A stretch of DNA of 64,000 nucleotides from an uncultured Bacilli bacterium (GCA_949025205.1 CARMXJ010000001.1:12980-76979), one strand, 5' to 3'. Shown: positions 30,001-36,000, counted from the first letter of the stretch. Made by a program: the numbers.

Positions 30001-33000
30001 ATAAGACAAAGTATGATACGGTTGTTAAAAAATTAAAAACGGGAATGATAGCTTTAAATAATCTATATTATTTAAGACCTTGTAATCCATTTGGTGGATA
30101 CAAAAAATCTGGAATGGGTAAAAATAATAGTGAATTTGCTTTAAAAGAGTTGTGTAATATGAAAGTAGTAACATATGAAAAATAAATAATAGACAAAAAG
30201 AAAGATGATGAAAATGAATAAAGAAATATTTGATAAAGAAAATGTATTTGGAAAAGGACTTCCTAATGAAAGTTTTTCCAAGTATTTTAGTGGAGCTTCT
30301 TTTTTAAATCCACTTACAGACCCTAAAGAATGTCCATTGTTTTTAGCCAATGTGACATTTGAACCTTCTTGCAGAAATAATTGGCATATTCATCATGCAA
30401 AAAGTGGTGGAGGACAAATTTTAATTTGTACAGCGGGAAATGGTTGGTATCAAGAAGAAGGTAAAAAAGCAGTGGAACTAAAACCGGGAATGGTTATTAC
30501 AATTCCAGCGAATGTTAAACATTGGCATGGAGCAAAGAAAGACTCGTGGTTTAGTCATATAGCCTTAGAAGTGCCAGGAGTTGATACTAAAACTGAATGG
30601 TGCGAAGCTGTAAGTGATGAAGAATATGAACAACTAAATTAAATAATGTCAATATAGAAATAGTAAAGGAAGTGATAAAAATGAAAAAAGAAGTAGTTCA
30701 AACAAATAATTTTTTAATATATGAAACCAATGACAAAATAAAAGTAGAAGTAATATTAGAACAAGAAAATATATGGATGACTCAAGAACAAATAAGTAAA
30801 CTTTTCAATAAAGCTAAATCTACCATTAATGAACATATTAAAAATATTTATTCTGAGTCGGAACTATTAGAATCAAACACGATGAGAAAATTCGGAAATT
30901 CCGAATTTTCTACTAAACCTACAAACTATTATAATTTAGATATGATAATTGCTGTTGGATTAAGAGTAAAATCTAATAGAGGAACTCAATTTAGAATATG
31001 GGCGAATGAAATATTAAAAGAATATTTAGTTAAGGGATATAATTTAAATGTGGATAGATTTAAAAATAATGGTGGTAGCTTCTATTTTGATGAATTATTA
31101 GAAAAAATTAGAGACATAAGATCATCGGAAAAAGTATTTTGGAGAAAAATATTAGATATTTATGCTACTAGTATAGATTATAATCCAAAAAAAGAAATAA
31201 CTATTAATTTTTTCAAAACGGTGCAAAATAAAATGCACTTTGCTGTTTCTAAAAGTACAGCTGCAGAAATTGTATATAATAGAGTTGATAGTAAAAAAGA
31301 AAATATAGGGTTAACTAATTTTAAAGGTAATATGCCAACAAAATCAGAAACTGAAATTGCTAAAAATTATCTAACCTTAGAGGAACTTGAAATATTAAAT
31401 AGATTAGTGTCAGCATATTTAGATGTTGCAGAAATTAATGCATTAAAACATAATCCAATGAAAATGGATGATTGGATTAAAGAATTAGATAGCTTTTTAA
31501 CAATGACTCACAATGATATATTAAATAATAAAGGAACTATATCTCATGAGCAGGCATTAAAAAAAGCACATGAGGAATATGATAAATATATGCAAACACA
31601 TTTAACACAAGTAGAAAAAGATTATTTAGAAGTGATGAATTTGGAAATAAAACAGATTAACGATGATAAATAGTCTTGTATAAATTCCAGCCTCCTATCA
31701 GGAAGAAGGAAAAGAGGCGGTTAGCCTTGAACCAGTAATGGTAATCACAATGACCACAAACGTAAAACACCGGCATGGTGCGAAGAAAGATTCTTGGTTT
31801 AGTCACATTGCAGTTGAGGTTCCAGAAGAAGAAACAAGCAATGAATGGTGTGAGCCTGTAAGTGATGAAGAATATGAAAGATTATAATAGGAGTGAGATA
31901 ATATGATAATAATTTATGATTTTGATGGAACCTTAACACCATTTGGCATACCACAATATGAGATTTTAAAAAAATTTGGTTATGACGACGAAAAGTTATT
32001 AAAACGAGTAATGGATTTAATGAAAAAAGAAGGACTATCTTTGTATCAATCATTTTATAAAACTTATGAAGATATTTTGAAAGAAAATAATACGGAAATG
32101 AGTTTCGCTAATATCACTTTGGGGTCAAATGATGTAGCGTTTAATCCAAGAGTTTTAGCTTATTTTGAAGAGATGCAAGAAAAGAATAGTGGTATCAATC
32201 ATTTTATCGTCACTTCAGGATTGGAAGAATATGTACGCAATACAGAGATTGGTACTCTAGTTAACGGAATATACGGAGTTACATATCACCGAAAAGGAGA
32301 TATTTTTACTACTGTTGATAGACTAGTTACCGATGAAGAAAAACCAAAAATCATTGAAAAGATAATTGAAAATAATAAAAATAAAAAGGTTATATATGTA
32401 GGTGATGGTCTAACAGATAAATATGCTTTCGAATTTGTTCACTCATTAGGAGGGATATGTATATACGTTGGAACAACAGGAAAAGATTTTGAAGGCTATA
32501 AAATTCTAAAAGAAAATGGCATCGTCGACGAGTATTTTTCAAGAGATTTTTCGGAAGAATCAGATTTTAAAAACTTTATAGAAAAAGAAATGCTTCCAGA
32601 ATATAAAAGAATTTAAAACAGGCTTGCATAAATTCCAGCTTCCTACCAAGAAGAAGGAAAGGAAGCAATAAGTTTAAGAACCAGGAATGGTTATTACAAT
32701 TCCAGCAAATGTCAAACATTGGCATGGAGCAAAAAAAGATTCATGGTTAGTCATATTGCAGTTGAGGTCCCAGAAGAAGAAACAAGCAATGAATGGTGTG
32801 AACCAGTAAGTGATGAGGAGTATGATAAGTTAAGATAGTAAAAAATAATATGTCTATAATAATCGAGGTGAAATTGATGAATGAAAGCAATATAATTTTA
32901 TATGAAACAGATGATGGAAATATAAATGTTGATGTAGTATTAAAAGATGAAACCATTTGGCTTACACAGAAAAGTATGGCTGAACTATTTGATGTAAATT

Positions 33001-36000
33001 CTCAAGCAATAACAAAACATCTTCAAAATATATATAATGATGGCGAATTGCAAAAAGAAGGAACTTGTTCCAAAATGGAACAAGTTCAAAAAGAAGGAAA
33101 TAGGAATGTCAAAAGAAATATTGATTTTTATAATTTAGATGCAGTTATTGCTGTTGGTTATCGTATAAACTCTAAAAAAGCAACTCAATTTAGAATTTGG
33201 GCTACAAGTGTATTAAAAGATTATATTATTAAAGGATTCAAAATTGACAAAGAGCGTATGAAAAATGGGCCAAAGTTTGGGAAAGATTATTATGATGAAT
33301 TACTTGAAACCATTAAAGAGATTCGTTTGAGTGAAAGAAGGCTATATCAAAAAATTACAGATCTTTTTGAAGCAACTAGTGTTGATTATAATAAAGATTC
33401 AGAGAGTGCTTATACATTTTTTAAAATAGTTCAAAATAAACTTCATTATGCAATCACAAATCATACAGCTGCAGAACTTATATATAATAGAGTGAATAGT
33501 GAAAAAGAACATATGGGTTTAACGAATTGGAAAAATGGTCCTAATGGTAAAATTATGAAGTATGACGTATCAATTGCTAAAAATTATTTAAATGAAGATG
33601 AAATAAAAAAATTAGAAAGTCTTACAACATTATTTTTAGATTATGCTGAGGATATGGCCAATGAACAAAAATTGATGACAATGCAAAAGTGGATTGTTGC
33701 AACAGATGATTTATTAAAATTTAGAAATAAAGAATTATTAACACATTCAGGTAATATTTCACATAAGCAGGCTATAGAAAAAGCAAATAAAGAATATGAA
33801 AAATTTAGAGTGAAGCAAGATAGAGAATACATCTCATCTATGGATGAGATGTATAAGAGGTATTTAGAGGAAAATAAAAAATAGGCTTGTATAAATACCA
33901 GTCTCCTATGAAGAACTTGGCAAAGAGGCAGTAAGTCTTAAATCAGAAAGTGTAATAACAATTCCAGCAAATGTGAAACACTGGCATAGAGCAAAAAAAG
34001 ATTCATGGTTCAGTCATGTAGTAGTTGAAGTGCCAAGAGAAGATACATTAAACGAATGGTGAACCAGTAACAGATGAAGAATATAAGAATTTAGATGTAT
34101 GAAATGAGAGTGTTATAATGGATTTAAATTTAAGAAAAGTAACTTCCAATAAAGATATAGCTTTATTTGTAAAGTATAAAGTTTTACTTATTAAGTATCA
34201 CCAACAATATGCTAATGCACTCGGTTTAGTTGATAAGATAGTTGAAAAGTATAATGAAAAGGATGCAAAAAAACATATTGGTGAAAATAATTTTTTTCAA
34301 TATATTATAGAGTTTGAAAATAATGATGCTGGTATACTAGAATATAGTATTAAAACATCTGATATTGATAATAAAAGTATCCTATATATAAAAAATGTAT
34401 TTATAGATAGTAAATATAGAGGATTTGGAATTGGCAAAGAAGTTTTACTAAAAATTAGAAATGAAACAGATTTTAGGATTGAATTAGAATGTTGGTATGG
34501 AATGCCTGCCAATGAATTATATAAAAAATTTAGGAATGAAGGAATTAAAGACAAGATATATTTGGAAAAAATAGTCTTACATAAATTCCAGTTTTTTCCT
34601 ATTAAGAAGAAACAAAGCGAGAAAGTTAAAACATAAAGATATAGTAAATATCCATGCATAATATTTTGTTTATTTCAGTTTGAGCTAGTAATAGCATATT
34701 ATAATTTTTCCTACTATGGAGATTTACTCGTAAACTTTATGGGTTGGCTAGGAATACTTTCATGCCTAATTATAGGAGATTTGTACTTTAATAAAGAAAA
34801 TAGAATTACTAATTATTTTAAAAAAGATTATAGGAGTTTACTAAATGAATTACAAAACAGAGCAACTGGTAGAGAAAATTTTCTTTTTTCATGATACAAT
34901 ATTAAGAGTAAAAAATAGTAATTTGAAAGTGAGAAAAGTACTATGGATCAGGAAAAATTTGGGAAATTTATTAAAGATATAAGAAAAAAACATAATTTAA
35001 CCCAAAAACAACTAGCTGATAAATATAATGTAACTTATCAAGCAGTAAGCAAATGGGAAAATGGTCTTTCATTTCCCAAATGACACAACAAGAAAAATTG
35101 CAAGATTTGCTTTATTTTAAAGGGAAAATCGACACTTATGATATTAAGTTAGAATCAATAAAAGAGGTCGAAAAAGAGCATAATTTCAATATAATTCTAT
35201 CAATTATCAAATAATAGCTGTATTTCTACATAATTATATAAAATAATGTTCTTTACTATAAAATGAGAAAATCTTATCAGGTTTGAGTGTCAGTTGGGTA
35301 TGAGAAGTCATGCCCTTTTATATTATTTATTAAAGTAGATTATGATTCAAAAATGAATTTATAAAAATATGAGGTAACTCATGTTTTTTTTGTTAAAGGT
35401 AAATGAAAGGGGGAATTAATGAATAATAAAATAATAAAGATTGGAACTTTTTTTAGTGGGATTGGAAGCCCAGAAAAAGCATTAGAAAGATTAAAAAATG
35501 AAGGATATATAAAAGATTTTAAGGTAGAGTTTTTTTCTGAAATAGATAAAAATGCAATCAAAAGTTATTGTGCCATTCATAATATTAGTGAAAATTTAAA
35601 TTTAGGAAGTATAATAGAAATCAATGGAGAGTACTTACCTTACTGTGATTTATGGGTAGGTGGATTTCCATGTCAAGATATTTCTTGTGCAGGTAAAATG
35701 AGAGGATTTGAGTTTGAAAGCTCAACAAGATCCAGCTTAGGATGGGAAATGATAAGACTTTTGCGAGAAGTTAAAGAAAAACCAAAGTTTGTGATATTTG
35801 AGAATGTCGCAATGATAAAAAGCAAAAAGTTTAAAGATACTTTAGAACTTTTTAAAGAAGATTTAACAAATTTAGGATATACCTTATATGATGATATATT
35901 GGGTGCTAATGATTATGGAATACCTCAAAAAAGAAAGAGGTATTTTTTAATTGCAATTTTAGATGATAAAAAGAATTTTGAATTTCCTAAAAAAATAGAA

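Follow-up and report, generated by a model that had tools for sequence, protein, structure and literature searches.

Two RhuM-family genes in a cassette array of a gut bacillus carry intragenic palindromes that covary with a predicted recognition helix

We analysed a 64,000-nucleotide (nt) stretch of DNA from an uncultured Bacilli bacterium (GCA_949025205.1 CARMXJ010000001.1:12980-76979; "the window" hereafter means this whole stretch), in which two genes of the RhuM family, here called RhuM1 and RhuM2, lie in an array of single-gene cassettes. The two genes are intact members of two individually well-conserved subfamilies under purifying selection, and each was acquired separately as a one-gene cassette, not by local duplication. 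Each also holds a perfect palindrome within its own coding sequence, and in a sample of the family the inner sequence of this palindrome is almost perfectly predicted by three residues at the start of a putative recognition helix. The explanation that best covers these observations jointly, and which we consider moderately probable, combines separate acquisitions, a cassette array served by a trans-acting recombinase, and a winged helix that would bind a private operator and be joined to an effector domain. A first-pass annotation of this DNA had called the family correctly and was partly wrong in its evolutionary reading.

The open reading frames (ORFs) given in that annotation, 30672-31673 (GTG start, 333 aa) and 32850-33884 (ATG start, 344 aa), are present and both intact. 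Public gene calls on identical DNA use later starts, ATG 30681 for RhuM1 (330 aa) and ATG 32877 for RhuM2 (335 aa), the latter with GAGGTGA 6 nt upstream, and these are the likelier starts. The core YNLD..IAVG.R..S...TQFRIWA, on which the RhuM call had been based, was found in both proteins (YNLDMIIAVGLRVKSNRGTQFRIWA and YNLDAVIAVGYRINSKKATQFRIWA), and the proposed PF13310 profile search matched both to Virulence_RhuM: RhuM1 with an E-value of 1.2e-100 and 336.4 bits (model positions 17-248 of 252), RhuM2 with 4e-106 and 354.4 bits (positions 2-249), against a gathering cut-off of 33.7 bits. All invariant columns of a 140-sequence alignment, comprising the N-domain core YNLD..I.VGYR..S..A..FR.WA and conserved C-domain residues, are present in both proteins. 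Both also match PADLOC PDC-S05 over their full length, RhuM1 with PDLC04843 as best model (E 5e-137) and RhuM2 with PDLC04851 (E 1.5e-141). NCBIfam has no RhuM model, and a PHROG search with the RhuM proteins gave almost no matches. The window genes are new members of a known candidate-defence family, which counts 30,453 clusters at 50% identity (E <=1e-3). The host genome, a metagenome assembly (GCA_948645185.1), has a GC content of about 27%, and the identical locus recurs in several sequencing runs of one study.

Homology between RhuM1 and RhuM2 is well beyond chance (BLASTP E 2e-85). Their identity, put at about 50% in the first-pass annotation, is lower, at 43% over 309 aa and 40-44% in multiple alignments. 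RhuM1 has more than 100 cluster representatives at 79-100% identity in other metagenomes, and RhuM2 more than 100 at 76-100%, and the distance between the two copies (40%) is about that of RhuM1 to almost any member of a diverse family sample (34-61%). Since each copy is far closer to outside genes than to its neighbour, two separate acquisitions took place. The ratio of nonsynonymous to synonymous substitution rates (dN/dS) against orthologues was 0.09-0.12 for RhuM1 and 0.10-0.20 for RhuM2; between the two copies dS is saturated, and their divergence is evenly spread along the protein and its domains. The annotation had instead proposed local paralogs that diverged in place under the diversifying selection typical of defence genes. 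Such a history would agree with their homology, their place in one array and the frequent diversification of defence families, but we judge it very improbable. Each copy has its much closer relatives elsewhere, RhuM1 is as distant from RhuM2 as from almost any family member, the best PADLOC sub-models differ, dN/dS within the lineages stays at 0.09-0.20 with no domain diverging in particular, and the cupin copies flanking the two genes (see below) have no relation to one another; that the lineages are not sisters is already indicated by the identity data.

The array in which the two genes lie is real and is not an integron. Its co-oriented single-gene cassettes are separated by a repeated element and follow a cupin gene, the last of a CMD-aldehyde dehydrogenase-cupin run, whose NCBIfam match (mandelonitrile-lyase-like) is below the cut-off. 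The order is cupin; RhuM1, J-X1; HAD-like gene, J-X2; RhuM2, J-X3; GNAT-like gene, J and a truncated X (Table 1). RhuM1 and RhuM2, described at first as occupying adjacent cassette slots, are therefore in slots 1 and 3, with the HAD-like cassette (31903-32616) in between; the N-terminal half of its protein matches PADLOC PDC-S34 (E 1e-21). The X spacers repeat the final 195 nt of the cupin gene; they are 65-91% identical to 30448-30641 and found nowhere else in the window, and when translated in the cupin frame they yield recognisable, decaying cupin C-termini. Ahead of each X copy stands J, a conserved non-cupin motif of 23-28 nt (consensus AAAYAGGCTTGCATAAATTCCAGYCTCC; searchable form GCTTKYATAAATTYCAGYYTCCTA), with four occurrences in the window where 0.03 are expected. 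J and X together form an element of about 220 nt behind each cassette. There is one gene per cassette and no small toxin-antitoxin partner gene, the spacers being filled by J and X. No IntI tyrosine recombinase was found beside the array in the window, nor any transposase, tRNA or Rfam family within the 64 kb. J+X was considered as an attC-like hairpin and dropped, as the 223-nt repeats give short local stems only (z about -2.2, both strands). A nearby prophage as source of the array was likewise dropped, since the 38-44 kb region holds ordinary chromosomal genes.

The same design with other cargo was found, by means of the J motif, in at least five other genomes. The loci read cupin, NUDIX, J-X (L175); CMD, cupin, GrpB, J-X (L185); J-X, RhuM1 orthologue, RhuM2 remnant (L188, a related metagenome-assembled genome); RhuM2-like gene, degenerate J-X, GNAT (L191); cupin, nucleoside deoxyribosyltransferase, J-X, RhuM-N::Fic fusion, X fragment, 167-aa ORF (L197/L198); and CMD, cupin, 102-aa ORF, J-X, 295-aa ORF, X fragment, flavodoxin (L202-L204). 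Across the array genomes J is nearly invariant and X differs by about 25%. Of 82 matches in a metagenome scan for J, 80 were due to chance, and a scan of viral contigs gave none. Since none of 80 loci from other species (many of them Firmicutes), whose cupins are 67-77% identical, has an array or duplication, the array is excluded as a general property of the cupin family. In L188 the RhuM1 orthologue is about 95% identical in nucleotide sequence, occupies slot 2 or later and is followed by a 97-nt RhuM2 remnant, and the HAD cassette is absent; the comparison with the window shows cassette turnover, not in-place diversification.

Two comparisons locate the other end of the cassette. In L175 the two X copies share about 93% identity and diverge only at ...DEEY, five codons ahead of the cupin stop, and between the window and L188 identity climbs from about 78% to about 95% at the DEEY codons. 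A first cassette model, X-cargo-J with the crossover at the J/X boundary, was weakened by the same alignment, as the X ahead of the L188 RhuM1 is only about 78% identical, the gene itself about 95%, and the rise starts only from DEEY. Because both comparisons put the breakpoint at DEEY, the integrated unit would consist of the last ~5 codons and stop of the cupin, the cargo, J and X. A trans-acting recombinase with its gene elsewhere would insert this unit where the cupin ORF ends, and, being made of tail, cargo, J and cupin copy, the unit would give J+X the part that attC has in an integron. The structure of the array is read directly from the DNA, and the process of its building we infer from these alignments.

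We weighed this against ordinary homologous recombination, that is, tandem duplication and gene conversion between cupin 3' ends with no dedicated site-specific system. X amounts to 195 nt of real homology, the displaced X copies of L175 and L197 resemble the resident gene of their own genome most closely (93% and 86%), as gene conversion would leave them, and neither a nearby recombinase nor an attC-like fold was found. Ordinary recombination would, however, poorly explain the sharp J/X boundary and the near-invariant J that recur in six or more genomes with X differing by about 25%, the placing of the other boundary at the same DEEY codons by independent comparisons, the exchange of differing single genes between constant ends, or the lack of duplication at all 80 related cupin loci of other species. 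We therefore regard it as a doubtful, though serious, alternative to insertion of a defined unit in trans.

A large serine recombinase (Resolvase, Recombinase and Zn_ribbon_recom domains) is encoded at 1-1314 of L197, 6.7 kb upstream of the array's cupin, on the strand that also carries a run of small accessory genes; it is a possible candidate for the missing recombinase. In L099, the preceding GNAT gene has 55 nt of its 3' end exactly duplicated (10706-10760 and 10861-10915), and the copies flank an extra 180-aa ORF, in an unrelated accessory-gene run that holds a RhuM2 homologue. Insertion with duplication of the upstream gene's 3' end may thus not be limited to the cupin site.

Integrons, with their IntI, attI and attC components, share with this array co-oriented, mostly promoterless single-gene cassettes each followed by a repeat, insertion at a fixed site, and cargo such as GNAT, NUDIX and defence candidates. 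The array differs in that no IntI was found, in that its repeat is a ~220-nt pseudo-copy of the target gene's 3' end plus J and not a structured attC of 60-140 nt, and in its host, a low-GC member of the Bacillota. Accretion at gene 3' ends is also known from staphylococcal cassette chromosome (SCC) composite islands at rlmH. Integrase-less accretion of this kind has been described for the cis-mobilizable elements (CIMEs) of streptococcal integrative and conjugative elements (PMC7563491), and tycheposons form arrays at tRNA genes (10.1101/2020.12.28.424599). Common to all of these and to the array are tandem units split by direct repeats from the 3' end of the target gene, which stays intact as the displaced copies decay. 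Here, in contrast, the units are single genes of 0.9-1.3 kb, the long repeat is bounded by a conserved non-genic motif, and the crossover would lie at the extreme 3' end, so that most of the repeat would travel behind the cargo; no integrase-bearing member was seen, and none lies in the window.

Turning to the proteins, an AlphaFold2 (AF2) model of RhuM2 built on the diverse 140-sequence alignment reached a mean predicted local distance difference test score (pLDDT) of 82.5; it replaced an earlier run on a 59-sequence, two-clade alignment (pLDDT 63.5, no usable Foldseek match). The N-terminal part is predicted to hold four short strands, helices 31-38 and 42-55 and a beta-hairpin wing at 64-85, and the C-terminal part to be an all-helical domain. 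Against the Bro-N profile the isolated N-domain reaches 22.4 bits (E 1.9e-4), short of the 25.6-bit cut-off. In the fold search, every one of the best matches (DdrC, pSK1 Par, RacA, TFE-alpha and Dachshund) is a DNA-binding protein of the winged-helix type. Among them, DdrC from Deinococcus radiodurans (PDB 7qvb, 8u0g) has about 10% identity, a high root-mean-square deviation and a much smaller C-terminal part than RhuM, and the resemblance is one of architecture and not evidence of homology or shared function. The C-domain has no significant fold match, and sequence and profile searches of the PDB with RhuM gave no match. The Fic/Doc-like or nucleotidyltransferase-like fold that had been suggested for these proteins was not recovered, as neither was matched in the fold search with the AF2 model, and no Fic domain with an HxFx(D/E)GNGRxxR-type motif occurs in the RhuM proteins of the window.

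The first strand of the predicted wing is encoded, in both genes, by a perfect palindrome at the same protein position, first flagged by a terminator scan. Only five perfect hairpins with a stem of at least 10 bp occur in the 64 kb, and four of these lie inside the window's three PDC-S05-type genes. The two palindromes are each unique in the 64 kb even at three mismatches, and there are no mixed dyads. For comparison we assembled 75 distinct IMG/VR RhuM genes, 45-62% identical to RhuM2. Of the 52 perfect hairpins of at least 8 bp in these genes, 42 are centred on residue 66. With mismatches allowed, 62 of 65 distinct regions have at least nine Watson-Crick pairs, and the other three only a 6-bp inner core. 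Across the 71 distinct RhuM genes examined for covariation, the palindrome is typically 10-15 bp and lies at codons 62-70. ORF6N genes, including that of the window at 13699-14658, carry a palindrome at the equivalent NLRSQ motif. Pairing was kept in 89% of cells, compared with 62% in shuffled data (0/500 shuffles) and 20-42% with the partner column slid; the covariation score was 0.737 versus 0.249 shuffled and at most 0.18 slid, and changes occurred on both sides at 12/12 pairs. RhuM1 and RhuM2 have the palindrome in different codon phases, and the peptide that it encodes varies greatly, so the constraint is on the nucleic acid and not the protein; a protein-level cause was dropped on these grounds. 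A role as frameshift stimulator was dropped as well, there being no consistent slippery site in the sequences inspected. Among 781 cells, G.T (13) and A.C (16) mismatches are equally rare, and the symmetry therefore fits a double-stranded DNA dyad, not an RNA read from one strand. Rfam has no family for the palindrome, and in the literature searched we found no paper that mentions a RhuM/ORF6N palindrome or its coupling to a recognition helix.

Residues 43, 44 and 47, which lie where helix 42-55 begins, predict the inner 5-bp half-site of the palindrome (positions 3-7 either side of the centre) almost perfectly. The helix key PASK goes with half-site TTTCC (18/18, in three subfamily backgrounds), QATK with GTTCC (RhuM2), [SP]TNE with TTCGG (RhuM1), DN[SG]L with CCGAG, NTTY with CTCGA, S[GTS]SR with TTGCA, STNY with TTGGA and [TS]V[TS]K with GTGCA. 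The half-site explains a fraction of 0.85-0.92 of the column entropy (MI/H) at residues 43, 44 and 47 and about 0.46 elsewhere, including residues 59-61, which abut the palindrome. Conditional mutual information gave z = 13.2, compared with 1.0-4.6 for six control triplets. RhuM1 and RhuM2 fall into different specificity classes, which probably do not cross-react. The suggestion that the pair are "immunity-type" genes may thus be kept in another form, with recognition helix and DNA site changing together in discrete classes and the two copies differing in class.

The simplest reading of this coupling is a RhuM dimer on a private operator within its own gene. The N-terminal, Bro-N-like winged helix-turn-helix (HTH) domain would bind, as a dimer, a dyad site of 25-31 bp in its own coding sequence (codons 62-70), with residues 43, 44 and 47 reading a 5-bp half-site on each side, its middle about 5 bp from the dyad centre, and the all-helical C-terminal domain is taken as the effector. 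Bound to the intragenic operator, RhuM would be restrained in its expression or activity, either through an autoregulatory roadblock or because it is tethered to self DNA, and the helix/site classes would keep co-resident copies from cross-reacting (STNE/TTCGG for RhuM1, QATK/GTTCC for RhuM2).

It is, in our estimate, rather unlikely that the palindrome is instead a purely structural element not bound by RhuM, that is, a hairpin in mRNA, antisense RNA or single-stranded DNA, whose link to the helix would come from block linkage. Such a hairpin might serve in replication or transfer, as a site for RNase III or as an antisense terminator, and several features suit these roles: stem sequence varies freely with pairing kept, the hairpins look like terminators with T-rich tails on the minus strand, their predicted RNA stability is -14 to -17 kcal/mol, and helix and site are only about 50 nt apart. 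An RNA read from one strand, however, would be expected to tolerate G.U wobble better than A.C, which is not seen (13 vs 16), and block linkage does not explain why the variable positions 59-61 beside the palindrome fail to track the half-site when the more distant 43, 44 and 47 do. These three are, moreover, the usual base-contact positions of an HTH, on an AF2-predicted helix, and the 5-bp half-sites are spaced about 10 bp centre to centre, as in dimeric HTH operators.

A known system of similar logic is lambdoid heteroimmunity, with its repressor/operator immunity groups. The likeness lies in an HTH recognition helix and a dyad operator that change together in discrete classes. In RhuM, by contrast, the site is within the protein's own ORF, where part of it codes for the wing of that very HTH domain; the protein further has a large, conserved domain resembling an effector, and binding is predicted.

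Further palindromes and related models were seen beside these. A second perfect palindrome of RhuM2 (33827-33854, 12-bp arms) lies near its 3' end at codons 317-326; none of the close homologues examined has it, and of the distant ones only one. The fifth perfect hairpin of the window (62687-62718, 13-bp arms, TGTATATACAAAA...) is just downstream of ORF 62159-62617. At 12605-14658, a YhcG/DUF1016 PDDEXK nuclease (PADLOC PDC-S02, E 1.5e-121) is followed by the ORF6N-domain protein, which matches PDC-S05 model PDLC04869 (E 5e-90) and is the third PDC-S05-type gene of the window. This gene has no BLAST similarity to RhuM2 and has its own perfect palindrome (13973-14001, 14-bp arms), encoding NLRSQIATS with TCG, GCG and ACC codons, which are expected to be uncommon at ~27% GC. 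Many of the PDC-S05 sub-models are short (82-116 aa); they cover RhuM residues ~10-90 and end just past the palindrome; the gene may often be split or mis-assembled there.

A defence role for RhuM1 and RhuM2 has outside support, by analogy with other members of the family. One PDC-S05 gene with a RhuM domain (a cold-seep member, in E. coli B) is reported to have cut phage plating about 1000-fold for T7 and T5 and about 10-fold for T4 (10.1101/2024.09.26.614923), which together with the PDC-S05 matches of both ORFs supports the defence-type role suggested at the outset. RhuM has been proposed as a toxin domain in restriction-modification (R-M)/PrrC loci, with fusions to DOC noted (PMC3710099), and is enriched beside invertible hsdS genes and type I R-M genes (PMC9881135). 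The expected association of the family with islands and R-M systems also agrees with annotated examples, an hsdM-RhuM-hsdS-Shedu-DUF3800-hsdR locus on a Roseicitreum plasmid and RhuM adjoining an integrase in Streptococcus phage satellites. RhuM occurs in Wolbachia phage WO and on at least 557 IMG/VR contigs. The window genes have in common with known RhuM/PDC-S05 genes the full-length hidden Markov model matches, the YNLD...TQFRIWA core, the single-gene format and the association with mobile DNA, and differ in being cargo of a cassette array, not part of an R-M operon.

The best-conserved segment of the family is in the C-domain (126-215), with R150, S152, E153, Q186, N187 and E200 invariant; K235 and E242 are also listed among the invariant polar residues of this domain. 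In the L197 cassette protein, an N-domain 43% identical over 127 aa to that of RhuM is followed by a Fic/DOC domain, and the RhuM C-domain therefore occupies a known toxin-domain position. These facts bear on another reading, in which RhuM is no anti-phage effector here. It would be a regulatory or nucleoid-type DNA-binding protein of mobile elements (antirepressor/Bro-like or DdrC-like) and would travel as cargo, either neutral or self-serving. The Bro-N-like N-domain, the fact that all fold matches, including full-length DdrC, are DNA-binding proteins, the family's presence in prophages, satellites and plasmids, and the metabolic-type enzymes next to it in the array, with no partner gene, would suit such a protein. 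Nevertheless, we consider this reading unlikely, since protection against three phages is reported for one member, the family shows strong enrichment in R-M loci, its C-domain is the best conserved part, with invariant polar residues, and is replaceable by a Fic/DOC toxin domain, and PHROG matches are almost absent.

Several observations weigh against our joint explanation of operator-binding cassette genes and a trans-acting recombinase. No recombinase domain was found in the scanned window ORFs of at least 110 aa or in pre-computed Pfam gene tables for 38-44 kb, and the kinship of displaced X copies with their own resident genes in L175 and L197 fits homologous recombination. The permutation test controls for three outer-stem classes only, its 71 sequences being related and not independent, and inheritance of helix codons and palindrome as one recombining block could yield part of their correlation. 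An operator some 200 nt into an ORF would be unusually placed, and the palindrome, terminator-like on the minus strand, could act as a single-stranded DNA or RNA hairpin. Close relatives of the window genes stand single among small accessory genes (GNAT, NUDIX, ASCH) between housekeeping genes, no R-M system adjoins the RhuM genes in the window, and the defence phenotype is known from one distant family member in E. coli.

RhuM is among the commonest genes without a known mechanism in defence islands, R-M operons, prophages and satellites, and the covarying dyad within the ORF, tied to three helix residues, is a first concrete and cheaply testable handle on what its N-domain binds. The helix/site classes suggest why several copies can coexist in one genome; if true, the table of helices and half-sites would be a natural recognition code and a possible source of non-cross-reacting DNA-binding parts. 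As for the array, its repeat consists of copies of the target gene's own 3' end, in a gut bacillus. Integrons are reportedly absent from Firmicutes, and a cassette array in such a host would therefore extend the known ways in which bacteria stockpile single genes. Beyond what we found described are a putative family-wide operator within the ORF with its apparent helix/site code, and an array that seems to use pseudo-copies of the target gene's 3' end, both supported by comparative evidence from sequences. Taken together, and tentatively, at somewhat less than even confidence, we propose that the RhuM/ORF6N superfamily (>30,000 clusters at 50% identity) may be a self-referential module, in which a winged helix reads a dyad operator in the codons of its own wing, in many non-cross-reacting classes, and that an undescribed cassette system may spread such genes and other small cargo in low-GC gut Bacillota, targeting the last codons of the cupin gene, using J+X for attC and having its recombinase elsewhere.

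Table 1. Features of the cassette array and of the two RhuM genes, in window coordinates
Feature	Position	Strand	Remarks
Cupin gene, 145 aa, target gene of the array	30205..30642	+	Pfam Cupin_2
X0, in-frame cupin 3' part (YQEEGK...EEYEQLN*), segment copied between cassettes	30448..30642	+
RhuM1, slot 1	30681..31673	+	330 aa (mechanical ORF from GTG 30672); PF13310, PDC-S05
RhuM1 codons for KAKSTINEH, turn and N-terminus of predicted recognition helix, key STNE	30810..30836	+	Alignment to RhuM2 residues 40-48, AF2 helix 42-55
RhuM1 perfect palindrome AGAAAATTCGGAAATTCCGAATTTTCT, 13-bp arms, half-site TTCGG, codons 69-77	30885..30911	.
J1 junction motif AAATAGTCTTGTATAAATTCCAGCCTCC	31668..31695	+	Overlaps RhuM1 stop codon
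X1, displaced cupin 3' copy	31696..31890	+	Frame intact, HWH -> HRH; 73-75% identical to X0
HAD-IB-like phosphatase, 237 aa, slot 2	31903..32616	+	Pfam and NCBIfam HAD, below cut-offs
J2 junction motif	32616..32643	+
X2, displaced cupin 3' copy	32644..32838	+	Two frameshifts
RhuM2, slot 3	32877..33884	+	335 aa (mechanical ORF from ATG 32850); PF13310, PDC-S05, AF2 pLDDT 82.5
RhuM2 codons for VNSQAITKH, turn and N-terminus of predicted recognition helix, key QATK	32994..33020	+	AF2 helix 42-55, covariation
RhuM2 perfect palindrome GAACTTGTTCCAAAATGGAACAAGTTC, 12-bp arms, half-site GTTCC, codons 62-71	33061..33087	.
J3 junction motif	33879..33906	+	Overlaps RhuM2 stop codon
X3, displaced cupin 3' copy	33907..34105	+	2-nt deletion
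GNAT-like acetyltransferase, 172 aa, slot 4	34118..34636	+	Weak Pfam GNAT matches; PHROG acetyltransferase E 8e-7
J4 and first ~45 nt of truncated X, distal array end	34569..34640	+

Elsewhere in the window, short overlapping ORFs with an HTH_3 match (34900-35215), between the array end and a methyltransferase gene, look like a broken Xre-type regulator gene. The methyltransferase, a C5 cytosine DNA methyltransferase at 35419-36464, is split into two overlapping ORFs (291 and 57 aa), with the same split in all public copies, and no restriction enzyme was recognised near it. It is followed by three unannotated minus-strand ORFs (36535-38081) and two HTH_3 regulators. A DUF5131 protein at 19489-20226 matches PADLOC PDC-M30B and PDC-M41B (E 8e-32) and precedes a 702-aa ORF without a family match. 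Conjugative-element genes occupy 44782-64000 and encode a SpaA/thioester adhesin, SSB, a type IV secretion system pilin, a TraG/VirB4-like ATPase, an M23 peptidase and a Toprim primase; the part of this block inside the window showed neither an integrase nor a relaxase. Just upstream of it, at 44473-44531, lie four 11-nt tandem repeats of TTGCAA type, which are iteron-like.

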